Assembly: GCA_963735115.1 (NCBI GenBank)
Contig: CAVTJR010000001.1
Coordinates: 401,958 to 465,957 of the forward strand
DNA length: 64,000 bases
Source of the DNA: an uncultured Actinomycetota bacterium
GTDB lineage: Bacteria; Actinomycetota; Acidimicrobiia; Acidimicrobiales; Bog-793
Direction of reading: 5' to 3'
Position 1 is the stretch's first letter; every line of letters starts with the position of its first letter. The translations under genes were made by a program, and so were the position numbers. Below are positions 25,811 through 44,769 of the stretch, piece after piece. Under the pieces are notes generated by a model. It did not search any database. It was not told where the DNA came from and saw only the letters and a list, made by a program, of their open reading frames with translations.

Positions 25811-25863
25811 GGCGCCTCCATTCCCCTGCCAGCGGCACTGCATAGGCCGTGAACTGGACTTTT

Positions 25864-25910
25864 AACGGTGGGCCCGGCAGGGATCGAACCTGCGACCGAA
25901 GGATTATGAG
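25864..25910 (-). repeat. att copy A: 47-bp copy of a tRNA-Met 3' half (anticodon loop to 3' end)
   Basis: AACGGTGGGCCCGGCAGGGATCGAACCTGCGACCGAAGGATTATGAG is identical to 28534-28580. No tRNA 5' half is adjacent. Confidence 0.9.
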
Positions 25911-27074: not shown

Positions 27075-27281
27075 TCAGCAAGAACAAGGGGGAACGCTCT
27101 TGCCAACGTGACCGGCTGTGCGCTGCCGGATGAACCGGGTCTGAGCGAGCGCATACTCGAGGCACTCCGCCACGACGTCGCAGCGCCAACACAATGCCTT
27201 CGCCTGAGTCGTCGAGTCGCCTCTCTCGGCGACGCTTGCCTGAGCAGTGGCTCGTCCTGCCTGCGATGAGCACGTGTTCAT
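27075..27281 (-). CDS. WhiB-like (Wbl) protein, atypical C-terminus
   Basis: Cys pattern C-X26-C-X2-C-X5-C (TCSS...LCWRCDVVAECLEYAL) matches the Wbl Fe-S cluster motif. The usual G[VI]WGG turn is absent. Confidence 0.35.
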   Translation of the reverse strand: MNTCSSQAGRATAQASVAERGDSTTQAKALCWRCDVVAECLEYALAQTRFIRQRTAGHVGKSVPPCSC

Positions 27282-27312
27282 ATCCCACGCTGCCGCGTGC
27301 CGGCAGGAGAGA

Positions 27313-28383
27313 ATGGCCGACATGGACGGTCATCTGATCCTGGTGGACGGCTCCGAGCGCGACGTCACCGCGGAGAACGTCAAAAGCCTGCTTGATTCCT
27401 CAGCCCGCTTTTGGCTGGACTTGGCCGGCCTTGACCAAGAAACCGGAACGGGGTTGCTGCGCGACACCTTCGGGTTTCACCCCCTCGCGGTCGAAGATGC
27501 CGAGCATTTCGGGCAACGCCCAAAGCTCGACTCTTACGATGGGTTCGCACTGCTCGTCGTGTACGGCGCCACGCCGACCGGGCAACTGCTAGAAGTCCAC
27601 TGCTTCTACGCCGAGAACTATCTGGTCACCGTCCACCACGACCCGTGCCTGGACCTGATCGCCCTGGCCGACCGACTGCGACGGCAAGCCGGTCCTCAGC
27701 CGGACCACGTCATGCTTCTCTACCGGGTGGTCGACGCCCTGGTGGACGGCTACTTTCCCGTGCTCGCCAGTCTCGACGACCGGATCGACGAACTGGAAGA
27801 CGAAATCCTCCAGCGACCGACAGAGCAGCAGCTCGGCCAGCTGTTCGACCTGAAGCGGTCCCTGATCGCGCTGCGCAAGGTGGTGACCCCCCAGCGGGAC
27901 ATGTTTGCCACACTGCTGACCGGCGCAGACCTGTTACCGGGTATGACGCCGGACGCCGAGCGCTACTTCCGTGACCTGTACGACCACCTCATTCGGATCA
28001 GCGACCTCGTCGACAGCTACCGCGATCTGACGAGCGGCGCTCTCGACACTCACCTGTCCACAGTCTCCAACCGACTGAACGTGGTCATGAAGCAGCTCAC
28101 CATCATCGCCACCATCTTCCTGCCGATGAGCTTCTTGACCGGGTTCTTCGGCCAGAACTTCACGTGGATGGTCAACCGGCTGAGCTCCGTGCTGGTTTTT
28201 CTTGTGGTTGGCATCGGCTTGCAGCTTGTCACCGCAGCCGCACTGGTCGTCATGTTCCGCCGCCGCGGCTGGCTGACCTCGGACGGCACCGTGCCACCCG
28301 CCACCCCGGCGGACCGACCCCGGGTGGGACACGACCAACGCTGGTACTTGCTCCACCCGCCGAAACGGTCGAATGCGCCCTAG
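27313..28383 (+). CDS. corA: CorA-family divalent cation transporter
   Basis: Cytoplasmic funnel domain plus two C-terminal TM helices. The signature loop is FLPMSFLTGFFGQNF, a GMN-type motif present as GQN. Confidence 0.8.
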   Translation: MADMDGHLILVDGSERDVTAENVKSLLDSSARFWLDLAGLDQETGTGLLRDTFGFHPLAVEDAEHFGQRPKLDSYDGFALLVVYGATPTGQLLEVHCFYAENYLVTVHHDPCLDLIALADRLRRQAGPQPDHVMLLYRVVDALVDGYFPVLASLDDRIDELEDEILQRPTEQQLGQLFDLKRSLIALRKVVTPQRDMFATLLTGADLLPGMTPDAERYFRDLYDHLIRISDLVDSYRDLTSGALDTHLSTVSNRLNVVMKQLTIIATIFLPMSFLTGFFGQNFTWMVNRLSSVLVFLVVGIGLQLVTAAALVVMFRRRGWLTSDGTVPPATPADRPRVGHDQRWYLLHPPKRSNAP

Positions 28384-28533: not shown

Positions 28534-28580
28534 AACGGTGGGCCCGGCAGGGATCGAACCTGCGACCGAAGGATTATGAG
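28534..28580 (-). repeat. att copy B: 47-bp copy of a tRNA-Met 3' half
   Basis: Identical to 25864-25910. It differs from the intact tRNA at 44697-44769 only by a compensatory T-stem pair change and the trailer. Confidence 0.9.
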
Positions 28581-28598
28581 TGCCGTGGGGGCCATTTC

Positions 28599-28717
28599 GG
28601 TCACCAGCAGATTTTGACGTAAGTCCAGGTCACAGGCCATTTCTGAGTGACCGGTAGTGACCCCTAGAACCCCTCTGTGACCCACCGTTGGGTCACGTTT
28701 GGGTCACGCCGGGTCAC
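28599..28717. repeat. cluster of 8 GGTCAC/GTGACC motifs (candidate integrase arm-type sites)
   Basis: ...TCGGTCACC..CAGGTCACAGG..GAGTGACCGG..TAGTGACCCC..CTGTGACCCA..TTGGGTCACGTTTGGGTCACGCCGGGTCACGCG. The tandem TTGGGTCACGtTTGGGTCACGCC recurs at 44615-44637. Confidence 0.6.
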
Positions 28718-28794
28718 GCGGATGGTGTCCTCCTAGCCGTTGACAGCGCTGATGGCGTCACTCGCACTCTCCGAGCCCAGCTGGAAATGCTCGA

Positions 28795-30225: not shown

Positions 30226-31788
30226 ATGGCAAGGAGAACGATGAAAGTGATCGACATCGTCGAGGTCCTCACGCACTGGCATGCCGGGCGGAGGATGGGC
30301 GAGCTCTGCTCGTCGCTCGGCATCGACCCGAAGACCGTGAGGAAGTACACCGCACCGGCCATGGCGGCGGGCATCTCGCCCGGCGGCCCGCCGCTGTCGC
30401 CAGACGAGTGGTCGCAGCTGGCGCGGGGCTGGTTCCCCGAGCTCACCGACGACTCGTCCCGCCAGACGACCTGGCCCGAGATCGAAGGACACGCCGAGCT
30501 GATCAAGTCCTGGCTCGGGCTCGTGACGATCTCGACCATCCATCAACGGCTCCGGGACGATCACGGCCTTGTCGCCTCGGAGTCCTCACTGCGGCGCTAC
30601 CTCGAGGCGAACATGCCCGAGGAGGTGAGACGCGCCCAGGTGACGGTGCTGAGAGAGACGCCTCCGCCCGGCGAAGAGGCACAGGTGGATTACGGCCTGC
30701 TCGGCCGCTGGGTCGACCCGGCCACGGGCAAGGTGCGCCGGGTGTGGGGTTTCATCATGGTGCTCGCCTTCAGCCGCCTCATGTTCGTGCGCCCGGTGCT
30801 GAAGATGGACTCCCGCAACTGGGTCGAGTGCCACGTCGCCGCCTTCGAGTTCCTCGGCGTCGCCCGCCGGATCGTGCCCGACAACCTGAAGACCGGAGTC
30901 GTCAAGCCTGATCTCTACGACCCGCTCATCAACAAGGCCTTCTCCGAGATGGCCGCCCACTACGACTGCCTCATCGACCCCGCCAGGGCTTTGAAGCCGA
31001 AGGACAAGGCACGCGTCGAGCGGCCGGTGCCCTATGTGCGGGACTCGTTCTTCGCCGGGCGATCCGCCGAGTTCGCCGACCTCGAGTCCATGCAGGCCGA
31101 TGCCCTTCGCTGGTGCCGGGCTGTCGGCAACCTGCGCCAGTGCCGGGGACTCGACCGGTTCTCGCCCCAGGCTGTCTACGACACCGAAGAGCGCGACGCC
31201 ATGACGGCCGTGCCCATGCTCCCCTTCGAGATCGCCTCCTGGTCGAAGGTCACGGTCAGGAACGACATCCACGTCAAGGTGGGAAAGGCCATCTACTCCA
31301 TGCCGTGGCGCCTCATCGGCCAACGCCTCGACGTCCGCGAGGGCTACCGGGTCGTCGAGGCCTATCTGGACGGCGTCCTCGTGAAGACCCATGCCCGCAT
31401 CGAGAAGGGCAAGCAGACCGACCCGGCGGACTATCCGCCCGAGAAGATCGCCTTCTCGATGCGATCCGCCGTCTGGTGCAAGAAGCGAGCCGAGGAGGCG
31501 GGCGCCAGTGTGGCGGCGGTGATCGCCGTGCTCTTCGAGGTGAACGCCCTCTACCGCCTCCGCCAGGCACAAGGGGTCATCCGCTTAGGCGAGCTGCACG
31601 GCAACGACCGCCTCGATGCCGCCTGTGCCCGCGCACTTGCCTTTGGTGACCCGAGCTACCGCACCATAAAGGGCATCCTTCGCGCCGGTCTCGAGAACGA
31701 CGGCGCCGATGCGCCACAGGTCCCGGAGGTGCCCGCCCACCTGCACGGGCCGCTCGCCCTGTTCGAGATCGAGGGGGCGGTGTCATGA
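30226..31788 (+). CDS. istA: IS21-family transposase IstA
   Basis: N-terminal HTH (IDIVEVLTHWHAGRRMGELCSSLGIDPKTVRKY), a DDE integrase core and typical length (520 aa). The stop overlaps the istB start. Confidence 0.9.
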   Translation: MARRTMKVIDIVEVLTHWHAGRRMGELCSSLGIDPKTVRKYTAPAMAAGISPGGPPLSPDEWSQLARGWFPELTDDSSRQTTWPEIEGHAELIKSWLGLVTISTIHQRLRDDHGLVASESSLRRYLEANMPEEVRRAQVTVLRETPPPGEEAQVDYGLLGRWVDPATGKVRRVWGFIMVLAFSRLMFVRPVLKMDSRNWVECHVAAFEFLGVARRIVPDNLKTGVVKPDLYDPLINKAFSEMAAHYDCLIDPARALKPKDKARVERPVPYVRDSFFAGRSAEFADLESMQADALRWCRAVGNLRQCRGLDRFSPQAVYDTEERDAMTAVPMLPFEIASWSKVTVRNDIHVKVGKAIYSMPWRLIGQRLDVREGYRVVEAYLDGVLVKTHARIEKGKQTDPADYPPEKIAFSMRSAVWCKKRAEEAGASVAAVIAVLFEVNALYRLRQAQGVIRLGELHGNDRLDAACARALAFGDPSYRTIKGILRAGLENDGADAPQVPEVPAHLHGPLALFEIEGAVS

Positions 31789-32439: not shown

Positions 32440-33651
32440 ATGGGCAAGGTTTCATGGACACGGGGCGATGGCCCCCTGGCGCCGTTCGCAGAGGGCTTCG
32501 AGTCGGAGCTCCGTCGGCTCGGCCACCCGCCGAGCGCCGCGAGGCATCACATGCACCTGATGGGCCAGCTGAACCGCTGGCTCACGGGCAAACACCTCGG
32601 TGTCGGCGATCTCAACCCCGTTGAGGCCGAGCTGTTCTTCTCATCACTCCGAGCCGCCGGCGTACAGCGAGTGCCGACGCTGGCCAGCTTGGTACCTCTG
32701 TTCGCTTTCCTCAGGCAACAGTGTGCAATTGCGCCGGTGGCGGCCCCAACACGGACACCACGGACGGAACTACTCGATCGCTATCGCCACCACTTGGTCA
32801 ACGACCGTGGCCTGACGCCGGTCACCGTGCGGCGCTACGACACCTTCGCCAGACGCTTCCTCGCGAACAGGGCAGCCGCGCGGGGTGCCGGGATCGGCAC
32901 CGAAGGGCTGTCAATCGCAGAGATCAACGGCTACCTGCTTGACACCTGCTCTCGGTTAGTCGTCGAATCGGCCAAGCGGGAAGCGGCTGACCTGCGTTCG
33001 CTGCTCCGCTTCCTGTACCTAGAGGGGCTCATTGAGACAGACCTCGGGCTCGCCATGGCGCCCGTGGCCACCTGGCGGGGTACCCGTCTGGTACCGACGC
33101 TGAGCGCTGCTGATGTCTCAGCGGTTCTGGCTTCCTGTGATCGTTCGACCGTGAGCGGCCGTCGTGACTACGCGATCTTGATTCTCCTGGCCAGGCTGGG
33201 GCTCCGCTCCGGAGAGGTGGCCGCATTGAGGCTCGCTGACGTTGACTGGCGCGCCGGTCAGCTGCTCGTGCGAGGAAAGGCACGGCGCCAGGATGTGCTC
33301 CCGCTGCCGGTCGAGGTAGGAGAGGCACTGGTGGCCTACTTGGAAGCCGGCCGCCCGTCGTCTCAGTACCCAGAGGTCATACTCACGCTCTACGCACCGC
33401 CGCGCCCGATCCGACCATCCTCGATCACCAACGTCGTCTACCACGCCAGCCAACGAGCTGGGCTCGCTCGCGTTGGTGGGCACCGCCTCCGTCATGCGCT
33501 CGCCAGCGAAATGCTGCGCCAGGGTGGGAACCTGATCGAGATCGCCCAGGCTCTTCGGCAGTCGGATCTCGCCACGACCTCGGGATACGCCAAGGTCGAC
33601 CGCGAAGCCCTGCGGGCGGTCGCTCAGCCGTGGCCGGGAGAAGGCCGATGA
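32440..33651 (+). CDS. tyrosine recombinase, RIT subunit A-like
   Basis: 403 aa. Catalytic region ...GLRSGEVAALRL...HRLRHALASEMLRQGGNLIEIAQALRQSDLATTSGYAKV. Confidence 0.85.
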   Translation: MGKVSWTRGDGPLAPFAEGFESELRRLGHPPSAARHHMHLMGQLNRWLTGKHLGVGDLNPVEAELFFSSLRAAGVQRVPTLASLVPLFAFLRQQCAIAPVAAPTRTPRTELLDRYRHHLVNDRGLTPVTVRRYDTFARRFLANRAAARGAGIGTEGLSIAEINGYLLDTCSRLVVESAKREAADLRSLLRFLYLEGLIETDLGLAMAPVATWRGTRLVPTLSAADVSAVLASCDRSTVSGRRDYAILILLARLGLRSGEVAALRLADVDWRAGQLLVRGKARRQDVLPLPVEVGEALVAYLEAGRPSSQYPEVILTLYAPPRPIRPSSITNVVYHASQRAGLARVGGHRLRHALASEMLRQGGNLIEIAQALRQSDLATTSGYAKVDREALRAVAQPWPGEGR

Positions 33652-34568
33652 CCGAGTTCGCCGTGAGAGCACAGGAATACCTGCGCCTGCGCCGATCGCT
33701 CGGGCACGAACTCGATGACGCCGTTCGCCTCCTTCCCCGCTTCGTCGCCCACCTGGAAGCGATAGGCGCTCCGGCGATCACGACTGAGATCGGGCTCCAG
33801 TGGGCACAGCGCCCTGACGCCGATCCCGCCAGTTCGATCTGGCTGCGACGCATGACGGTTGTCCGAGGCTTCGCCCACTACATGTCGGGCATCGACCCGA
33901 GGACCGAGGTGCCGCCACTCGGGCTGGTGACCTTCCGCCCGCGCTGGCGGCCGCCGTTCATCTACTCCGAGGACGACGTCGTAGCGCTGATGAACGAAGT
34001 CCCACGAGTCGTCCCAACGCCCTTTCGGGCTCTCACGCTCCAAACAATGATCGGCTTGCTGGCTGCGACCGGCATGCGGATCGGCGAGGCCATCGGCTTG
34101 TCGCGGTCCGACGTCGATTGGTCCGACGGCGTCGTGATCGTGCGGGAATCGAAGTTCAACAAGTCAAGAGAGATACCACTGGCCCCGAGCTCGGTAGCCG
34201 CGCTCCGGGTTTACGCCGAGGTGCGTGACGGGAACGTGCCCGAGCCCGGGAGTCCAGCCTTTTTCATCTCGGGTCGCGGAACTCCCGTCATATATGGGGT
34301 CTTCGGCGACATCTTCCGCCGGCTGCTGGCGGCCTCGCGAGTCGGCGAGGACTCGCCGGTTCGGCCGCGGGTTCATGATCTGCGACATTCTTTCGCTGTC
34401 CACACCCTCGTCCGATGGTATCGAGCAGGAGAAGATGTCGGCGCTCTCCTGCCACGACTCTCCACCTACATGGGGCACATCGAGGTGCGGTACACCTATT
34501 GGTACCTCTCGGCTGCCCCGGAGCTGTTGGCTCTAGCGGCCGACCGCCTTGAAAGGGGCGAGAGATGA
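33648..34568 (+). CDS. tyrosine recombinase, RIT subunit B-like
   Basis: ATGA overlap with the upstream gene. GMRIGEAIGL...VHDLRHSFAVHTL...LSTYMGHIEVRYTYWYL. Confidence 0.85.
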   Translation: MTEFAVRAQEYLRLRRSLGHELDDAVRLLPRFVAHLEAIGAPAITTEIGLQWAQRPDADPASSIWLRRMTVVRGFAHYMSGIDPRTEVPPLGLVTFRPRWRPPFIYSEDDVVALMNEVPRVVPTPFRALTLQTMIGLLAATGMRIGEAIGLSRSDVDWSDGVVIVRESKFNKSREIPLAPSSVAALRVYAEVRDGNVPEPGSPAFFISGRGTPVIYGVFGDIFRRLLAASRVGEDSPVRPRVHDLRHSFAVHTLVRWYRAGEDVGALLPRLSTYMGHIEVRYTYWYLSAAPELLALAADRLERGER

Positions 34569-35554
34569 GTTCGGTCGCGCCCACCATGCAGATGTTCTTC
34601 ACCGATCGACTCGCCAAGCAGCGCCAGGTGAGCCCAGCCACTGTGAAGTCCTATCGGAACACCTTCGTGCTCCTGCTGCGCTTTGTGCACGGCCAGACGG
34701 GAAAGGCGCCGTCCACGCTCGACTGGTCGGACCTCGGGGCGGGTGTCATCTCGGACTTCTTGGACCATCTCGAGCACGACAGGCACAACAGCGCCCGCAG
34801 TCGGAACACTCGCCTTGCCGCAGTGCGATCGCTGTTCCGGTATGCGGCACTTCGACATCCCGAGCACGCACACCTGATCCAGCAGGTGCTTGCCATACCG
34901 CAGAAGCGTTACGACCGGACACTGGTTCCCTTTCTGGAGCCGGGCGAGGTCGCCGCGTTGCTTGCCGCTCCGGACCGCAGCCGGTGGGAGGGTCGACGTG
35001 ACCATGCACTGATCTGCTTCGCCGTGCAGACCGGGCTGCGTCTCTCCGAGCTCACAGGCGCCAAGTGTGGCGACATCGAGCTAGGGACTGGGGCGCATGT
35101 GCGCTGCATCGGAAAGGGGCGTAAGGAACGCTGTGTCCCGCTGACTTCAGACACCATCGCCGTCCTGCAGGTCTGGCTACAGGAGCGGGGCGGGCTTCGC
35201 GACGAACCGCTATTCCCGACTCGAACGGGACGTCGCCTCAGCGACGACGCAGTTGAGGCTCGTCTCGGTGTCCACAAACAGACGGCCGCCCGCCTTCTCC
35301 CTTCGATTGGTGCGAAGAAGCTGACGCCGCACGTACTGCGCCACACCTGCGCCATGAACCTCCTTCGAAGCGGCGTCGAGGTCGTTGTCATCAGCCTCTG
35401 GCTTGGCCACGCAGATATCCGTTCCACCCATTGCTATTTGCACGCCGACATGAGCATCAAGGAACGGGCGTTGGCCCGAGCGGCGCCAACCTCATCGAAG
35501 CCGGGACGCTACAAGGCGCCGGACAAGTTGCTCGCCTTCTTGGAGAGTCTGTGA
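34565..35554 (+). CDS. tyrosine recombinase, RIT subunit C-like
   Basis: ATGA overlap. GLRLSELTGAKCGDI...PHVLRHTCAMNLLRSGVEVVVISLWLGHADIRSTHCYLH. Confidence 0.85.
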   Translation: MSSVAPTMQMFFTDRLAKQRQVSPATVKSYRNTFVLLLRFVHGQTGKAPSTLDWSDLGAGVISDFLDHLEHDRHNSARSRNTRLAAVRSLFRYAALRHPEHAHLIQQVLAIPQKRYDRTLVPFLEPGEVAALLAAPDRSRWEGRRDHALICFAVQTGLRLSELTGAKCGDIELGTGAHVRCIGKGRKERCVPLTSDTIAVLQVWLQERGGLRDEPLFPTRTGRRLSDDAVEARLGVHKQTAARLLPSIGAKKLTPHVLRHTCAMNLLRSGVEVVVISLWLGHADIRSTHCYLHADMSIKERALARAAPTSSKPGRYKAPDKLLAFLESL

Positions 35555-36248: not shown

Positions 36249-36322
36249 ACATGAGTTGCACGCCGGATGAGGGAATTACTTGACGGAATCGTCAGGGAAT
36301 TACGTGACGGTTGACATACGGG

Positions 36323-36770
36323 CGGCCCCCTACGGGGTCACCCAGTTCTCCACCTCCATCGTCGACGTGAGAGCCGGCCAGCTCCTCGACGTCGTGCCCG
36401 GCAGGGGCGGGGCCGAGCCGGCGGCCTGGCTGCGCAGTCGCAGCGAGGACTTCCGCTCCTCGATCCGCTACGGCACCTTGGACCTCTCCGGCGCCTACCG
36501 GGCCGTCTTCGAGGAGGTACTTCCCGGTGCCGTCCTCGTCGCCGACCCGTTTCATGTCGTCAAGCTCGCCAACGAGCGTCTCGACGACTGCCGCCGCCGC
36601 GTGCAGAACGACGTCCTCGGCCACCGCGGACGGAAGGGAGACCCTCTCTACCGGTGCCGTCGCCTGCTCACGCGGGCCGACGAGCGGCTGAGCGACAAAG
36701 GGCGTACCAAGCTCGTCGGGCTGCTGCGGGCCGGCGACCCACACGGCGAGGTGGCCCCTATGCCGAATGC
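36323..36770 (+). pseudogene. ISL3-family transposase, central fragment (3' end missing)
   Basis: AAPYGVTQFSTSIVDVRAGQLLDVVPGRGGAEPAAWL...FHVVKLANERLDDCRRRVQ...RLLTRADERLS...DPHGEV. Similarity to the family ends at about 36765, where composition drops. Confidence 0.7.
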
Positions 36771-37249
36771 TCAACGGGGTTTGCTGTCAACAGCAGTTCG
36801 TTCGGAAATAGGCCGCTACACCTATCAATAGACGTTCAGATTGGTGTGTTTGTAAGATTGTATGAGCAGTTCCGGGGCTCCGGAGCCTCGACCACAGTCA
36901 TGTTCCGGTGACCACCCGAGGTCGCTCGGCAGATGACGCCAACTTTCCGTTACGTCCATCGACGCCACCGTCTGCGCGCACTCAGCCATCAGGCCTTGCA
37001 CGATCCAAGCCGGGTATTCCGCTAGTCCGCGTCTGGGCGCATGCAAACACGCCAAGCTCACCTCCAGCACGTCGAGCCATAACCCTGTCCGCGGCCCCGA
37101 GCGAGCTACAACCGCGGACCGTCAACGGCAGACTAGCGGCGAAGGCTCACGAGCTCCTTGACGCGCCGTTCGCTTGCGCGTACACTCCCAGCGTGAGGCG
37201 GACTGGGATGGTCGGTAAGTAACGGTCTTTATGATCTCCCAGGCGCTTA

Positions 37250-38056
37250 ATGTGCCACTTTCCTCTGCGGTACTCTTGCTCTGGGAAGCTGGGCGAAAGT
37301 CTCAATGTCGGTCAGAACACAGGCAGCTTGTTCGTTGGAATCATTGGTTCACTTACGGCTCCAGGTCCCTCGCAAGTTGATACTTCAGATGATCAGGCGC
37401 TGCTGCTTTGGCTTGGAATGGAAGAGTATTCCACTCCTACGGGTTACTACTGTGACTTGGATGGCGAGCTTACCCATTACTGCTGGACCCAGGTAGGCCT
37501 AGCAATGGGCACGTTCGGAGATCCGTATTGCCCAGGCAATCCGCGGACCACGACTTCGGACACGAGCTACGAGGTCTACTTCGAACGGTACGATATCAAC
37601 GGTTGCGCGGACGTGCTGAGCACTGTCGACATTGATACGAGCGACGCTGTTCCATTTCAAGACAACTGGACAGGCGAGTATATCGATGGAGGCTACCAAT
37701 ACGAATCTCAGGTTGTCGACAGCTCTGACCACTACGTTGAAATCGGCACTGGTGACCTCTACTACCTCGACATTCACGCGGAAGCACAGGCAGAGATTCA
37801 CACTGGGAGCGATACAACCTGTCCCACGCTAACCGGTGGCTCGCCGTATCAGCACTTCGGCGATCAAGTCGATGGTAGCTGGGATGGTGGATCCGCCAAA
37901 CTTCAGGTCGAGAACTCCTCGACCGATACATTCAGTCCGTGGTCGACTGCTGATGGACCCAGTGCTCCCTTCTCGGATAGCCCCTATTGGGTAACTGAAG
38001 GAGGTCATTGGCCAGCTGATTTCCAAACTAACGGCCCAGGGGGTGGACCCCCGTGA
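37250..38056 (+). CDS. low-GC acidic Cys/Tyr/Asp-rich protein, unknown function
   Basis: 268-aa ORF with no recognisable motif. The start is uncertain. Its stop overlaps the next gene's start, which suggests an operon. Confidence 0.45.
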   Translation: MCHFPLRYSCSGKLGESLNVGQNTGSLFVGIIGSLTAPGPSQVDTSDDQALLLWLGMEEYSTPTGYYCDLDGELTHYCWTQVGLAMGTFGDPYCPGNPRTTTSDTSYEVYFERYDINGCADVLSTVDIDTSDAVPFQDNWTGEYIDGGYQYESQVVDSSDHYVEIGTGDLYYLDIHAEAQAEIHTGSDTTCPTLTGGSPYQHFGDQVDGSWDGGSAKLQVENSSTDTFSPWSTADGPSAPFSDSPYWVTEGGHWPADFQTNGPGGGPP

Positions 38057-39327
38057 TTCGAGTTGGATCACCGGACAGGGAGAGGCGTAATAGGCTAGCA
38101 ATTCTGGGTATCGTCTGCCTTTGCGCCGTGACGCTGTCCGCATGTGGAAGAGGGATCGAAACGAGCAACGGTCATTCCCGCATTAGCAAACCACCCAACC
38201 AAGCTGCGTACCGCTATCTCACTCGGTCAACAGTTGTGCCAGCCAACGGACCTTCTTGGTTGCTCCCAGCCGGATTCAGCACTTTGCAGAGCCTGACCGG
38301 TGACCCGAACGGAACTGGCGCCTGGTTCTGGGACAGTACCTCCAACGAAGACGTGATTTTCAACTCAAGCGCAGGCAATATCTCAGAGTGGCCTGTGCTA
38401 TCGGGTAGCAACTTTCAGCAGAGCGAACAGGCGGGCGGGTTGGCAGTCGACCCGCAAGGCAACGTTTGGTTGGCTATTAACCTGACGCTCATCGAGTTGG
38501 ACCCGGCGACGGGAGCCACGGAGACTTGGACAATTCCCACTCCGAGTGCAAATCTCGCGGCTGCTAGCTTCGAACCGTCGGGCGCGGCTGAGATCGCAGT
38601 GACCGGCTTGGCGGCGAGCCCTTTGGGGACGATCGCCATATTGACCAGTAATTCGAGCACAGTTGAGGTATTCGACCCTCGATCGTCCGAATTCGACAGC
38701 ATCTCAATGCCGACCGATGACGACCTTCCGACCGCTGCGGCGTTCTCAGGAGACGGGACCTTGTGCATTGGCTTCTCAGCAGTCGAGGAAGGCACGGGCG
38801 GTACTGCTTCCAACCTGATGATCCTGAGCCCTAATGGTCAAGCCGCAACTTACTCACTTCTCACACCGGGATCAGCCTGGGACATCGCCCCCTTAGGATC
38901 GTCGAGCTTTGTCGTCGGAGATGAATCGCCTGAGTTGGCGACCACTTCTGGAACTATCACGAGCATCAATTCACCGAGTGCCTTGGTGGGAAGCGGGCAG
39001 CCAATGACGCCCCTTGTCGTCGCAGGCGGCGACGTCCTAGTCGGACACGCTCAAGGTGGACTGGTTGCGTTTCCCGACGATGCAAGTTCTGTTGCCCAAG
39101 CTACAGAGGAGTCGACGTTCATTCCGTCGGCCCAGGTTTGCGGCCCCAGCGGAGACGCTCCCGGTCCGGGCACGTCCACCGAGGGGACAGTCTGTGGCGC
39201 GCCTGGATATTTTGATGTCGTTGCCGACGGCGATGGAGACCTCTGGACCGTCGGAAGCGGCGGCGTCTCCGAGGTACCGCCTCAAACGGTTAGCGCTGCC
39301 ATCACGAGGGCCACTAACAGGGCCTGA
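38053..39327 (+). CDS. low-GC lipoprotein, beta-propeller-like repeats, unknown function
   Basis: Lipobox LAILGIVCLCAVTLSAC. Repeated ...G..WF/WL..., ...DPQGNVWLA..., ...DGDLWTV... strands resemble NHL/Vgb-lyase-type propellers. Confidence 0.6.
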   Translation: MIRVGSPDRERRNRLAILGIVCLCAVTLSACGRGIETSNGHSRISKPPNQAAYRYLTRSTVVPANGPSWLLPAGFSTLQSLTGDPNGTGAWFWDSTSNEDVIFNSSAGNISEWPVLSGSNFQQSEQAGGLAVDPQGNVWLAINLTLIELDPATGATETWTIPTPSANLAAASFEPSGAAEIAVTGLAASPLGTIAILTSNSSTVEVFDPRSSEFDSISMPTDDDLPTAAAFSGDGTLCIGFSAVEEGTGGTASNLMILSPNGQAATYSLLTPGSAWDIAPLGSSSFVVGDESPELATTSGTITSINSPSALVGSGQPMTPLVVAGGDVLVGHAQGGLVAFPDDASSVAQATEESTFIPSAQVCGPSGDAPGPGTSTEGTVCGAPGYFDVVADGDGDLWTVGSGGVSEVPPQTVSAAITRATNRA

Positions 39328-42500: not shown

Positions 42501-42807
42501 TGGCCACCAGCCGATCCAACGTGGCGGGATGCCGGGCACCACCCGCCCCGAAGACTGCTTCGTAGGACTCGGGCGATACCGACTCGGACAGACCGAGCGA
42601 CATCGCGCCAGAGCCGCCCCACACGAGCGGAGTCTCGCCCCGAGAGGCGTAGTACTGAAGTGCCATGCCGGGAAAGTCGTCGGCGCGTTCGAGCACCGTG
42701 GCCCGGTGGTACTCCACCGACTCGGCCCCCATCATCCGCATCCACGCCACTGCTCTGTCACCACTTCCGTACGACGGTCCGGCCTTTGGCAACCTCAAAG
42801 GTTGCAA
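39574..42807 (-). CDS. MobF-family relaxase/helicase (TrwC/TraA-like)
   Basis: N-terminal TrwC relaxase domain (YYASRGETPLVWGGSGA, histidine cluster HTRHATSRAGDPSPHDHVLVGN). C-terminal RecD-like helicase (Walker A GVAGAGKTT, DEVGM, ...ATTVHRSQGATV). The true start may be M23 (42741). Confidence 0.9.
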   Translation of the reverse strand: MQPLRLPKAGPSYGSGDRAVAWMRMMGAESVEYHRATVLERADDFPGMALQYYASRGETPLVWGGSGAMSLGLSESVSPESYEAVFGAGGARHPATLDRLVATRRPGMELVISGHKSVAELGVIGRAEDMHAIMDAERDATLAYLDRVTRQMGGRRGRAATASQTGGLIYAHTRHATSRAGDPSPHDHVLVGNLVEMRDDRGGWKAADTTLWREHLHAATMVGRVASARVAVGLGYGIEADPGPSGKLGHWRIAGIPDEVLALHSKRAAEIEAECQRRGATSYRARGIAARTTRSSKEHEAERELVDRWRAELEAAGWPVERLLASVEAARDEVRSLTPKDGRRLLSEVLGHDGELARRKVFSRRHVVVVLAPHLYGRGPALLDAFVDRALADPECVPLVGVSGAREQVYSLASVLARETAIAESLQRQLARDDAPAVTEVEAEAAIDEAEASLGAELSEEQRSAAVAICTSGRGAELVEGVAGAGKTTMLKVVAAAFTEAGYQVLGTATSGQAARTLSSEAEIGESRTLASLIWRLDHHQLSLSERTAVILDEVGMTDDVDLVRLAAHVEAAGAKLILVGDHHQIGPVGPGGALGALVSRHPDAVHHLSENRRQHDPEERQALAALRDGEVAEAISFYVERERIHAEADRGTALQAAVDAWSADVAAGHDVGLYAWRRANVSELNERARSWMDATARLSGPELVCPGGNAYRAGDEVVTLAPGPGGRLVTSERAVVHAVHPATGAIDLRTSDGREVRLTGEQAGAERLGYGYATTVHRSQGATVTRAHLFADGEGRELAYVAMSRGRESSHAWTVADGLAQAAEDLRRDWSTQRTPTWAIDTGLLDHEKLTAEAVAGMGDEQKFQIAAIVHAETTIVAQANARIRPPDLAPALGEAQAALGQAQQARADLDTGSGSYAYSEAGSAVVDLAEATVGMASARWRAEHASRWRERRVANREAGSWAERAKDAEQRSQTHVVPEAARLDAEIARHRGDVERLAARLERQEARSRLSRERTWDLCRTADGLAAGLDAHRDRLDGIRRRSAPQPVPAGNRQLRRPDPTPHHEPPRPQLGPGL
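42789..42805. promoter_or_regulatory. inverted repeat GCAACCT-caa-AGGTTGC just upstream of (or in the first codons of) the relaxase gene; oriT-type hairpin candidate
   Basis: Perfect 7-bp arms with a 3-nt loop, positioned next to the relaxase start. Confidence 0.3.
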
Positions 42808-42839
42808 TCGTGTTCTGCTCTAGTTGGGTATATAGGAGC

Positions 42840-42950
42840 TGGTGAGGGATGTAAAGGGGTTGATTTGTGAGCGGTAAGTAGCGGTGAGTAATGGTAAATG
42901 ATGGTGAGGAAGAAGTGGTGGGATTGGTGATGGCGGGTGGCTGCTGGGGC
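42840..42950 (+). repeat. C-depleted G/T/A-rich tract with phased GGTRA repeats
   Basis: Only 3 C in about 110 nt on the + strand. GGTAA/GGTGA occurs at 42873, 42883, 42893 and 42903 (exact 10-bp phase), with further copies at 42841, 42917 and 42926. Confidence 0.7.
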
Positions 42951-43138
42951 TGGGGCAGTGAGCAAGGAGCTGAGCCGGTCGCGCAGATAGCTTGGATGTG
43001 CCATCGCGCAGTAATTGTAGGACCGAGGCGACTGACGGCTCCTGCCGGGCCGCCATCGGTCCATATGTGGAGCGGCACACGGTCATGCGTCAGAGCCGTC
43101 GGGCAGCGGCGGACAAACCGTCATCAAAGGAGTCAGCC

Positions 43139-43342
43139 ATGACCGCGCCAGACCCGCTTCCTCACCTCCTCACCATCGACGAGCTCGCCGACCACCTCGG
43201 CGTGAATGTCCGCCACATCCGCCGGCTCATCGCCGAACGCCGCGTGCCGTACTTCAAGGTCGGTCGACTGATTCGCTTCGACCCGGCCGACGTGGCCAGC
43301 TGGCTCGCTCGGACTCGGGTCGATGGGCACCGCAGCGCCTGA
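43139..43342 (+). CDS. xis: excisionase-family HTH DNA-binding protein
   Basis: AAAGGAG plus the ATG at 43139. LLTIDELADHLGVNVRHIRRLIAERRVPYFKVGRLIRFDPADVASWL is a typical Xis/MerR-type winged HTH upstream of int. Confidence 0.85.
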   Translation: MTAPDPLPHLLTIDELADHLGVNVRHIRRLIAERRVPYFKVGRLIRFDPADVASWLARTRVDGHRSA

Positions 43343-43449: not shown

Positions 43450-44673
43450 ATGGGTCGCCGCCTCTCCGGATCGGTTGACCGACTGCCCTCCGGCCGTTGG
43501 AGAGCTCGCTACCGCGGGCCCGACGGTCACCGCCATACCAGTGGGTTTCGAACGAAGGCAGATGCCGACGCGTGGCTGGCGGCCCAGCAGACTGATCGCC
43601 GGCGCGGCGCATGGATGGATCCGAGGCTTGGACAAATCACCATCGCCGATTGGGCCGGCGCATGGATGCAGACAACGGTGCACCTGCGTCCCTCGACCCG
43701 TGCGGGGTACGAGGGCAAGCTGCGAGCCCACGTGTTGCCGCGGTTGGGCGGCGTTCCGGTCATCAGCCTCGACACGCCGGCGATTCGCCGCTTCGTGGCC
43801 GAGATGGCCGCCGACGGGGTCAGCCCTGCGACCATCCTCGGCGTGCGAGCCGTGCTTCGGCTGCTGCTCGGGACGGCGGTCGAGGCCGGCGCCATCGTCG
43901 TCAATCCCTGCGCTGGCATCAAGGTGCAACGACCGAAACGCCTGGAGATGCACTTCCTCACGGCCGACCAAGTAGAGGACCTGGCCGAGACCATTGCCGT
44001 CCCCGCGCCCAAGACCGCCGGCCATGGCGCCGGACCACACTGGCGCACCGATCTCCCGGAGTACGGGCTATTGATCCGGTTCGCCGCCTACACCGGTCTC
44101 AGGGCGGGCGAGATCGGCGCCCTGCGGGTCGGGAGGCTCGACTTCCTCCGCTCCACCGTGGAAGTCGCAGAATCGGCGACCGAGGTCAACGGCCAGCTCG
44201 TCTACGGGCCAACCAAGAACTATCACCGGCGTGCCGTGCCGCTCCCTCCGTTCCTTAGGGACGACCTCGCCGCTCTCCTCCGGACCCGACCGCACGATCC
44301 GGACAGCTTCGTCTTCGCCGCACCTGAGGGTGGTCCGCTGCGGCACAACAACTTCTACCGCCGCCACTTCAAGCCCGCAGTGCTGCAAGCGGGCCTCCCG
44401 GCGGATTTGCGGTTTCATGACCTCAGACATTCCTTTACGGGATTCCTCATCGCTCAGGGAGCCCACCCGAGGGCGATCATGGAGCGACTCGGGCACTCCT
44501 CGATCCAGGTCACACTCGGCACCTACGGCCACCTCCTGCCGGGCATCGACGAGCGCCTCACAGTCGGTCTCGACGACCTCGGACGAGCCGCTCGCGCCGC
44601 CTCATCCGATTCCCGTGGGTCACGCTTGGGTCACGCCCCCGTGACGACCCTGCCGGTGGCTTCACATAAATAG
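43450..44673 (+). CDS. int: tyrosine-type site-specific integrase
   Basis: N-terminal arm-binding/SAM-like domains. Catalytic GLRAGEIGALR...FHDLRHSFTGFLIAQGAHPRAIMERLGHSSIQVTLGTYGH. The stop lies 24 bp from the tRNA 3' end. Confidence 0.95.
   Translation: MGRRLSGSVDRLPSGRWRARYRGPDGHRHTSGFRTKADADAWLAAQQTDRRRGAWMDPRLGQITIADWAGAWMQTTVHLRPSTRAGYEGKLRAHVLPRLGGVPVISLDTPAIRRFVAEMAADGVSPATILGVRAVLRLLLGTAVEAGAIVVNPCAGIKVQRPKRLEMHFLTADQVEDLAETIAVPAPKTAGHGAGPHWRTDLPEYGLLIRFAAYTGLRAGEIGALRVGRLDFLRSTVEVAESATEVNGQLVYGPTKNYHRRAVPLPPFLRDDLAALLRTRPHDPDSFVFAAPEGGPLRHNNFYRRHFKPAVLQAGLPADLRFHDLRHSFTGFLIAQGAHPRAIMERLGHSSIQVTLGTYGHLLPGIDERLTVGLDDLGRAARAASSDSRGSRLGHAPVTTLPVASHK
44615..44637 (+). repeat. tandem TGGGTCACG motif inside the int 3' end (partner 28688-28710)
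   Basis: GTGGGTCACGCTTGGGTCACGCC versus TTGGGTCACGTTTGGGTCACGCC at the opposite end of the element, in the same orientation. Confidence 0.6.
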
Positions 44674-44696
44674 CCACTGAACTGGGCTTTATTGCG

Positions 44697-44769
44697 TGGG
44701 CCCGGTGGGGATCGAACCCACGACCGAAGGATTATGAGTCCTCTGCTCTAACCACTGAGCTACGGGCCC
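44697..44769 (-). tRNA. tRNA-Met (CAT) (elongator type; Ile2-lysidine type cannot be excluded)
   Basis: Reverse complement GGGCCCG-TA-GCTC-AGTGGTTA-GAGC-A-GAGGA-CTCATAA-TCCTT-CGGTC-GTGGG-TTCGATC-CCCAC-CGGGCCC-A forms a full cloverleaf. Confidence 0.9.

Follow-up and report, generated by a model that had tools for sequence, protein, structure and literature searches.

A predicted origin of transfer and relaxase promoter region in a family of MobF-type integrative mobilizable elements from Acidimicrobiia

The origins of transfer (oriTs) of plasmids F and R388 are among the closest described counterparts of the locus considered here, which lies in a 64,000-nt stretch of DNA from an uncultured Actinomycetota bacterium (the window), between the divergently oriented genes for a MobF-type relaxase and a small excisionase-family protein (xis). 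In F, an GCAAAAAC-TT-GTTTTTGC hairpin is followed by the 9 nt GTGGGGTGT, the nick and GG (PMC3074121), and a second molecule of the relaxase TraI binds, in helicase mode, the single-stranded DNA (ssDNA) 3' of the nick (PMC5422253). For TrwC of R388, only the nick-proximal arm of the hairpin and the 9 nt before the nick are sequence-critical, the distal arm and the loop being tolerant of change (PMC4176350). The site of TraN in pIP501 is 55 bp away from the nick and 35 bp ahead of the -35 hexamer of a promoter that overlaps oriT (PMC4981023). In ICEMlSymR7A, the gene for RdfS lies upstream of both oriT and rlxS, and mobilisation of an oriT plasmid depends on the protein, which forms oligomers on DNA and has promoters in addition to attP among its targets (PMC11963761). 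Recombination directionality factors have as their sites direct repeats with a spacing of one helical turn (PMC7498355), the target of BldC consists of four head-to-tail repeats (PMC5859096), and in CTnDOT the tra promoter is activated by Xis2c and Xis2d, which bind upstream of it (PMC3809561). According to a 2017 review, MobF relaxases were not known from any canonical mobilizable island (PMC5704250). Here, comparison with related loci indicates that positions 42789-42933 of the window, which comprise a hairpin, an invariant box, a promoter-like element, a C-depleted tract and an array of 10-bp repeats, probably constitute the oriT and relaxase promoter region of an ~16-kb MobF integrative mobilizable element, this function being predicted from sequence.

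The perfect hairpin GCAACCT-CAA-AGGTTGC that had been reported in a first-pass annotation of the window was recovered exactly, and is directly followed on the plus strand by the box AATCGTGTTC (Table 1). A scan of species-representative genomes returned 72 related loci with relaxases 50-85% identical to that of the window, each of which was viewed with 6 kb on either side, and 54 of which include the relaxase N-terminus. The signature ACG(A/G)TTGCAA, together with its hairpin, is present as a single occurrence 44-73 nt upstream of the relaxase start at 47 of these 54 loci. A scan of metagenomes for the box plus GCAA...TTGC yielded 120 stretches, 47 with a relaxase homologue, and in these 47 contigs the nick core is located 29-76 nt upstream of the relaxase, with the exception of three truncated hits. 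Related loci number about 100 in all, from metagenome-assembled genomes of Acidimicrobiia and from metagenomes; all but one of the 72 genome loci are titled Acidimicrobiia, Acidimicrobiales or uncultured Actinomycetota, the remaining one being binned as Acidobacteriota.

The sequence of the stem varies between relatives (GCAACC(T/C), GCAAGCC, GCAAGGGG, GCAACG, GCAAC and others, with at least 6 classes of perfect stem) and its complementarity stays perfect. Compensatory changes were recorded by RNAalifold, with pair 25:35 present as GC in 14 and CG in 13 sequences, and pair 26:34 as CG in 16 and GC in 8; changes on both sides were found at pairs 25:35, 26:34 and 29:33 in 13, 8 and 8 of 29 sequences, respectively. 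The nick-proximal arm TTGCAA, which is the relaxase-distal, 3' arm on the plus strand, is invariant, whereas the other arm and the loop vary, and the 10-mer AA(T/C)CGTGTTC is invariant, or nearly so, in both of the relaxase clades that were distinguished. The locus displays the sequence attributes of a MobF nic region, in that it adjoins a MobF relaxase gene with gene-last polarity, as deduced from the position of the invariant box, and combines a conserved proximal arm, a covarying distal arm and an invariant segment of ~9 nt. By analogy, the nick is predicted to fall on the plus (G-rich) strand ~9 nt past the hairpin, near 42814/42815, and, since the hairpin lies on the relaxase side of the nick, the relaxase gene would be transferred last and xis and the integrase gene (int) first. 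There is a strong case, then, that the oriT proposed in the first-pass annotation is real and serves the adjacent relaxase; its recognisable core, however, is formed by the hairpin and the box at 42806-42815, and not by the repeat tract on which that annotation had centred.

The relaxase itself matches the Pfam families TrwC (7e-48) and AAA_30 (6e-52), scores 143 bits against the NCBIfam MobF model NF041492 (cutoff 100), and finds the relaxase domains of F TraI and R388 TrwC in the PDB (1e-13 to 4e-15). The nearest relaxases in a plasmid database are from sphingomonads and enterobacteria and are only 31-35% identical; no link to a characterised actinobacterial oriT emerged from that database, and the literature offered nothing usable on the Rhodococcus traA oriT. 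An extension of the relaxase N-terminus over the hairpin was also considered, since the open reading frame (ORF) begins at TTG 42807 and the first-pass annotation had itself named a start at that codon as the circumstance in which the hairpin would be coding. This codon proved to be a mechanical ORF start only. Position 42750 is occupied by a start codon in 49 of 54 relatives (GTG in 38, TTG in 7 and ATG in 4), all three reading frames of the hairpin relative to the relaxase start occur among the relatives, and in-frame stops lie between hairpin and start in 26 of 54, so that the extension was rejected and the hairpin is regarded as non-coding. It follows that the hairpin does not abut the relaxase gene, as had been thought, but lies 38 nt from the true GTG start.

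Sixteen loci (L013-L016, L019, L020, L025, L027, L028, L030, L033, L037, L039, L041, L048 and L056) belong to a second relaxase clade, in which the nick box is accompanied by an GCAAGGGG/CCCCTTGC hairpin 51 nt from the start and by a conserved GTCACACCCnCTGAATACCTT extension. This clade has neither the 10-bp array nor a G-depleted tract, no xis homologue was found within 6 kb, and a small ORF upstream of these relaxases, which has no Pfam hit, looks spurious.

Copies of the nick core were also encountered apart from any relaxase gene. At 15 metagenome loci (L088, L152, L106, L173, L141, L089, L097, L123, L150, L191, L110, L137, L177, L189 and L187) the invariant nick box, a perfect 6-7-bp hairpin and conserved flanks are present, and no relaxase homologue or long ORF was found downstream in the sequence available, which extends to 11 kb in L141. 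These copies may represent oriT-only hitchers.

Between the box and the repeats, the arrangement TTTACA-17-TA(T/A)A(A/C)C is found at fixed spacing and is conserved in divergent relatives, where the -10-like hexamer is often preceded by TG (TGnTA(T/A)AAC) and an A-rich stretch lies upstream. It is described here as promoter-like only, on grounds of sequence. A transcript initiated from it toward the relaxase gene would begin just before the nick box, such that bound relaxase could autoregulate its own expression, in the manner reported for pIP501 (PMC4981023).

The conserved promoter-like boxes could instead belong to a plain divergent promoter and operator region of relaxase and xis, comprising low-GC promoter DNA, operators for a factor other than Xis, possibly host-encoded, and a hairpin that stabilises or regulates the relaxase mRNA from its leader and plays no part in DNA transfer. 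Consistent with this, the hairpin would be located at about +15 to +31 of the transcript, some loci with an array have no xis nearby, and intergenic promoters in high-GC genomes tend to have a reduced GC content. However, the 24-nt stretch made up of one hairpin arm and the 10-mer is invariant across relaxases of 50% identity while the other arm covaries, which argues for a nick site rather than a leader hairpin, and the second clade retains hairpin and box without the promoter or the array. Layout and polarity, moreover, agree with those of F and R388, the C-depleted tract is the single least foldable window at 23 of 23 loci and not just one promoter among several, and an Rfam search of the region returned no known RNA at E <= 1. 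A promoter would in any event be compatible with an oriT, as the two overlap in pIP501. A promoter and operator without oriT function is considered improbable. A scan of the region for intrinsic terminators found none.

The 10-bp repeats are situated beyond the predicted nick, as seen from the hairpin, and end 13 bp upstream of the -35 hexamer. The four units conform to the pattern T-N-A-C-C-R-Y-T-A. Among 200,000 shuffles of the 140 nt concerned, a single one produced four copies in exact 10-nt phase, and a position weight matrix of the 10-mer located no second array on either strand of the 64 kb. When 24 other loci were scored with a matrix derived only from the four units of the window, the maxima fell at -88, -78 and -98 from the nick box, with the best match in register in 20 of the 24. 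The repeats are thus present in related elements, and in fixed register, which was the comparative check that the first-pass annotation had called for. Of the GGTRA motifs listed there, those at 42841, 42873, 42883, 42893, 42903 and 42926 were confirmed, whereas that at 42917 reads GGTGG; the four central copies (42873 to 42903) correspond to the array units, which are written here as read on the minus strand. Diverged arrays, for example GTGACCGCCG TCGACCGCCA CCGTCCGGTC, are kept even where there is no depletion of G. A further G-poor block, ATCACCAATCCCACCACTTCTTC, lies upstream of the array, and related blocks of the form CAC(T/C)AATCAC..ACAAT..TTCT occupy the same place in those relatives whose upstream sequences were printed.

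Several other features of this interval were noted in passing. In L059, L050 and L017, the interval from the 10-bp array to xis holds two or three copies of a ~22-nt direct repeat (CCAAGGGCACCGATCTCAACCC) at a spacing of ~45-50 nt, at a distance of ~150-300 nt upstream from the relaxase; the window is without them. A small ORF on the G-rich strand (42891-43142), the stop of which overlaps the xis ATG, has no homologue in the ORF clustering of the relatives and falls in a non-conserved part of the intergenic region. Clusters of 16 and 15 loci formed by ORFs over the region were judged, from their position, to be shadows of conserved DNA and of the relaxase N-terminus, and the clustering revealed no conserved accessory gene near the relaxase other than xis.

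Direct repeats in low-GC DNA might also be iterons of a theta or rolling-circle origin of the excised element, as had been entertained from the outset. Some relaxases of integrative elements do also drive rolling-circle replication from oriT. No Rep initiator gene, however, was found in the element or, within 6 kb on either side, in its relatives, the genes common to the window and the 72 loci being int, xis and the relaxase gene only; the units are contiguous and of 10 bp, as opposed to the 17-22 bp that are typical of iterons; and the array is linked to relaxase and xis. The iteron proposal was dropped as very unlikely indeed.

A candidate for the protein that binds the array is the 67-aa product of the divergent xis gene, which matches Pfam HTH_17 (2e-13) and TIGR01764 (4e-13). 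An AlphaFold2 model computed from the single sequence (pLDDT 73.5) matched, best first, the mycobacteriophage Pukovnik Xis (4j2n), the BldC-DNA complex (6ama), RdfS (8dgl; TM 0.68) and pIP501 TraN (4p0z), with the GIsul2 excisionase also among the structural matches; the small size of the domain keeps all E-values at or above 0.006. Three arginines of the recognition helix (R25, R28 and R29) do not vary among 17 homologues. Co-occurrence was assessed at 77 non-identical loci, with an array defined as three or more in-phase units and a divergent xis as a homologue within 700 nt. A divergent xis is present at 26 of 38 loci that have an array vs 3 of 39 that do not (Fisher p = 2e-8, odds ratio 26, kinship ignored). 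Pairwise identity between Xis proteins correlates with that between relaxases (rho +0.49) and inversely with that between integrases (rho -0.46), the median values being 67% for Xis, 79% for the relaxase N-domain and 29% for Int. Since Xis identity tracks the relaxase and not Int, xis appears to belong to the oriT-relaxase module, with integrases being exchanged. With at least three direct repeats one helical turn apart, and a protein of the appropriate fold that is both encoded by the element and co-occurring with the array, the chances that the array is a binding site for the Xis-family protein are judged to be about even.

The repeats may instead be bound by the relaxase, or act through DNA shape, as a relaxosome scaffold, in which case Xis would simply be a neighbouring excisionase. 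The distance from array to box, which is fixed in all relatives, would suit such a scaffold, as would the few array loci that lack a nearby xis, and the relaxase carries a C-terminal extension of ~250 aa without an assigned function. Against this, the Pfam search detected no DNA-binding domain in the extension, the array tracks xis with the odds ratio given above, Xis tracks the relaxase module as opposed to Int, and contiguous one-turn direct repeats are the documented mode of binding for the Xis fold. A scaffold bound by the relaxase therefore seems unlikely, and Xis remains the preferred candidate. As an observation apart, two array-bearing loci without xis, L031 (5066-5674, minus strand) and L068 (4851-5429, minus strand), encode a protein of ~200 aa in the divergent position upstream of the relaxase, with a helix-turn-helix-like segment (...GVRALAVGIGTT... 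and ...GVRDIASAIGTTKDTAARAV..., respectively).

The tract that contains the promoter-like element and the array is strikingly asymmetric in composition. The plus strand from 42821 to 42931 has 3 C per 111 nt, the lowest count of all such windows in the 64 kb (mean 37), with GC skew reaching +0.81 and GC content falling to 0.46-0.52 in a window that is 66% GC overall; the tract is its 4th-lowest-GC 100-nt stretch. The C-depletion originally described is therefore genuine, although the count of three C given for 42840-42950 was not, there being 6. Folding energies were computed for 120-nt windows on both strands with DNA energy parameters. Those starting at 42801 and 42841 gave -3.5 and -4.3 kcal/mol on the plus strand and -1.6 and -2.4 kcal/mol on the minus strand, against a mean of -23 +/- 5.4 for the whole; on both strands, no other windows of the 64 kb have so little structure. 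The equivalent segment ranks as least structured in 23 of 23 genome loci of the repeat-bearing clade (z +2.2 to +4.6), and the corresponding position does not hold this rank in the 16 second-clade loci, where array and tract are missing. Since the tract is located directly 3' of the predicted nick, ranks with the most readily melted DNA of the window and is unable to re-fold, a melting or helicase-loading zone is a reasonable, if tentative, suggestion for its role.

Cytosine deamination was considered as the sole cause of the C-depletion and rejected, since G, T and A are all enriched on that strand and, on the complement, A is not consistently above T. Formation of a G-quadruplex on the G-rich strand, which had also been raised, was addressed by motif prediction. 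Seven runs of at least three G are present in the window's tract, together with one loose motif (loops up to 12 nt) at about 42920-42958; a canonical motif (loops of up to 7 nt) is found neither in the window nor in 24 relatives, and the loose motif occurs in only 5 of 25 sequences (the window included), at differing places. A quadruplex element is accordingly given next to no weight. Among the relatives, L081, L163 and L105 have extreme G-free, C-rich tracts upstream of the nick box (130 nt), in which only 4-7 G are counted per 115 nt; these have short repeats of their own, such as CCCTCACCCCTCCAT in L081, and no recognisable TNACC array, which indicates that the constraint on composition does not depend on the array. 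In L055, more than 100 consecutive A are found at ~65-170 nt upstream of the nick box, most likely as an assembly artefact, and that locus was left out of the composition statistics.

A number of observations weigh against the assignment as a whole or against parts of it. The nick is placed by analogy, because the nearest characterised relaxases are only ~31-35% identical, and in F and R388 the accessory sites lie 5' of the nick, whereas the array here is on the leading side. A sigma-70 consensus scan of the region returned 0 sites, since the -10 hexamer is without the canonical final T, and for both reasons the promoter assignment is provisional. With regard to Xis, the co-occurrence statistics are not phylogenetically independent. 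Four loci of the repeat-bearing clade (L009, L031, L068 and L047) have no xis homologue within 6 kb on either side, and at seven further array loci xis is 1-4.5 kb away, so that adjacency of xis is not obligatory. The second array that a true excisionase would be expected to have at the attachment (att) sites was not found in the 64 kb, and these sites carry GGGTCACG repeats instead. Depletion of G, the counterpart of C-depletion on the relaxase-coding strand, ranges from 4 to 27 G per 115 nt across the relatives, shows no association with xis (p = 0.46), is weak at some array-bearing loci and is absent from the second clade, which keeps the hairpin; depletion is thus not required for the nick site, and the tract is a feature separable from the array. 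Lastly, no helper conjugation system is visible within the 64-kb window.

Taking the features together, the following sequence of events is proposed. After excision, the relaxase would recognise the hairpin by way of the invariant arm TTGCAA and the single-stranded box, nick the plus strand near the predicted position and stay on the 5' end. The DNA 3' of the nick, being of low GC content, strand-asymmetric and unable to self-fold, would melt readily and remain open, and could thereby offer a loading site to a second relaxase molecule in helicase mode, as for F TraI. Transfer would proceed toward xis and int, the relaxase gene entering the recipient last. With the relaxase promoter in the same tract and the transcript starting just before the box, bound relaxase could autoregulate. 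The four repeats would most likely be bound head-to-tail by the divergently encoded winged-helix protein, and binding of this Xis-family protein could couple excision to relaxase expression, to relaxosome assembly, or to both. The mating pore would have to be supplied by a helper element.

A more specific proposal, that these loci define an undescribed family of MobF mobilizable elements in Acidimicrobiia with a minimal, self-sufficient three-part oriT, made up of the hairpin and nick core, a tract of ~100 nt free of one base, and Xis as a relaxosome or promoter factor, is advanced as speculative and on present evidence doubtful. Were it true, the C-free tract, in which neither strand could fold, would be a built-in unwinding or helicase-landing element that replaces melting driven by accessory proteins, and an 'excisionase' bound to the phased array would have become a relaxosome or promoter factor that travels with the relaxase while integrases are swapped. 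The metagenomic nick cores without a relaxase would then be the oriT-only hitchers of this family.

Table 1. Coordinates of the features of the putative oriT region and of the surrounding element in the 64,000-nt window.
Feature	Position	Strand	Remarks
Inverted repeat, 7-bp stem and 3-nt loop	42789-42805	+	Predicted relaxase recognition hairpin on transferred strand
Invariant box AATCGTGTTC, directly 3' of hairpin	42806-42815	+	Predicted nick region; nick ~42814/42815 by analogy
C-depleted, G-rich, low-GC tract	42816-42933	+	First DNA 3' of predicted nick on transferred strand; putative structure-free ssDNA zone
Promoter-like element toward relaxase	42827-42855	-	-35 TTTACA 42855->42850; 17-nt spacer; -10-like TATACC 42832->42827
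Four head-to-tail 10-bp direct repeats CTCACCATCA TTTACCATTA CTCACCGCTA CTTACCGCTC	42869-42908 (42908->42869)	-	
Further conserved G-poor block ATCACCAATCCCACCACTTCTTC, upstream of array	42909-42931	-	
MobF-type relaxase fused to SF1B helicase, 1058 aa	39574-42750	-	Start GTG 42750
Excisionase-family winged-helix gene, 67 aa	43139-43342	+	Divergent from relaxase; candidate array binder
Tyrosine integrase	43450-44673	+	Pfam Phage_integrase 8e-23
GGGTCACG repeats, right end	44617-44648		Two direct copies and one inverted GTGAC, inside int 3' end
tRNA-Met gene, 3' part = right attachment site	44696-44769	-	ARAGORN
Direct copy of tRNA-Met 3' part = left attachment site	28538-28581	+	blastn 91% over 44 nt
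GGGTCACG repeats, left end	28690-28722		Three direct copies

The element that carries this region is ~16 kb in length (28.54-44.74 kb) and is inserted in the tRNA-Met gene. It possesses an integrase, att repeats, and its own relaxase and putative oriT, and has no mating pore, which are the properties of an integrative mobilizable element ('iMOB'). No mating-pore or coupling-protein genes were found in it, and no type IV secretion system (T4SS) or coupling gene was found within 6 kb on either side at the 72 related loci. On sequence comparison its conserved core is int, xis, the predicted oriT and the MobF relaxase/helicase gene, the remainder being insertion sequence (IS) elements, a recombinase trio and unannotated cargo. 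The GGGTCACG repeats are spaced by 10-11 nt at both ends and are likely to be integrase arm-type or excisionase sites distinct from the oriT array; a search for Int arm-type or Xis sites common to the array and the att arms was negative, in that the arms carry these different repeats.

With respect to the remaining content, three tandem tyrosine recombinase genes (32440-35554, plus strand; 403, 312 and 329 aa) resemble a recombinase-in-trio insertion, and adjoin a Mu-like rve transposase gene (30226-31788) and an ISL3 transposase fragment (36280-36831). Given these IS and recombinase-trio insertions, the element may be decayed. The relaxase gene is closely followed, both in the window (38053-39327, plus strand) and in L004 (9548-11974), by genes for beta-propeller (SGL / lactonase / NHL) proteins; these have no mutual homology detectable by BLAST and may be recurrent cargo. 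Outside the element, a weaker copy of the tRNA-Met 3' part (25850-25910; 62 nt at 85% identity) is found 2.6 kb beyond the left end, which suggests the remnant of an older tandem island that carries a CorA transporter gene (27247-28383).

The anatomy of the region is very probably that of known kinds of site, namely a MobF oriT, a promoter that overlaps it and an accessory site for a winged-helix protein, brought together in an undescribed family of islands from Acidimicrobiia. Two features are unusual: the array is placed on the leading side, ahead of the predicted nick, and the 3' flank is conserved as structure-free DNA. Since the anatomy is familiar, the finding is likely to be useful rather than startling to a specialist in conjugation. 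It does, however, point to relaxase-encoding mobilizable islands with MobF relaxases, in a group where, as in high-GC soil Actinomycetota generally, conjugation is almost unstudied, and it adds to the few oriTs known for integrative elements a concrete candidate, with a nick core of ~27 nt, a predicted nick on the plus strand, a candidate accessory protein and a defined 40-bp array. The ~100 natural variants serve as a ready mutational scan. Strand-asymmetric, structure-free DNA 3' of the nick is also a possible design rule, which could help to predict oriTs in high-GC genomes.

In comparison with F and R388, the locus has the same order of elements: a hairpin, directly joined to it a short single-stranded segment that is invariant, and beyond this the nick, which is predicted here. 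The proximal arm and the segment, which are sequence-critical in those systems, are invariant here, and the distal arm and loop are free. The F hairpin, moreover, starts GCAA...TTGC, and the 9-nt segment after it is G/T-rich and ends in GTGT. In all cases the hairpin is on the side of the relaxase gene, which is, or here would be, transferred last, and the relaxase carries a fused SF1B helicase, for which ssDNA 3' of the nick is required. The locus differs in that its relaxase domain is ~31-35% identical to those of MobF plasmids and its box has a different sequence; in that the interval between nick and relaxase gene, at only ~55 nt, is without TraY, TrwA or IHF-type sites; and in that the element is integrative and lacks mating-pore genes.

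The resemblance to pIP501 resides in a relaxase promoter (promoter-like here) that overlaps oriT and in a small MerR/excisionase-like winged-helix protein, TraN, at a unique site, TraN being among the matches to the Xis model. However, pIP501 is a Firmicute plasmid with a MOBQ relaxase, the site of TraN is without repeats, and TraN itself has the form of an internal dimer, its gene being the last part of the tra operon. ICEMlSymR7A similarly has the gene for a winged-helix excisionase beside oriT and the relaxase gene and not beside int, but is a proteobacterial integrative and conjugative element with its own T4SS and a relaxase of another family; rdfS is co-directional, in an operon upstream of oriT, and neither an RdfS consensus motif nor a phased array is evident. 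As to the arrays bound by Xis, Apl, Cox and BldC, the BldC unit AATTxxxxC is unlike the T-N-A-C-C-R-Y-T-A of this locus, where the array is at the oriT and promoter with no second array at the att sites, and where binding is predicted. The likeness lies in the arrangement of three or four adjoining direct repeats, spaced by one helical turn, which in those systems are bound head-to-tail by winged-helix proteins of ~60-70 aa that double as regulators of transcription (PMC7498355, PMC5859096).

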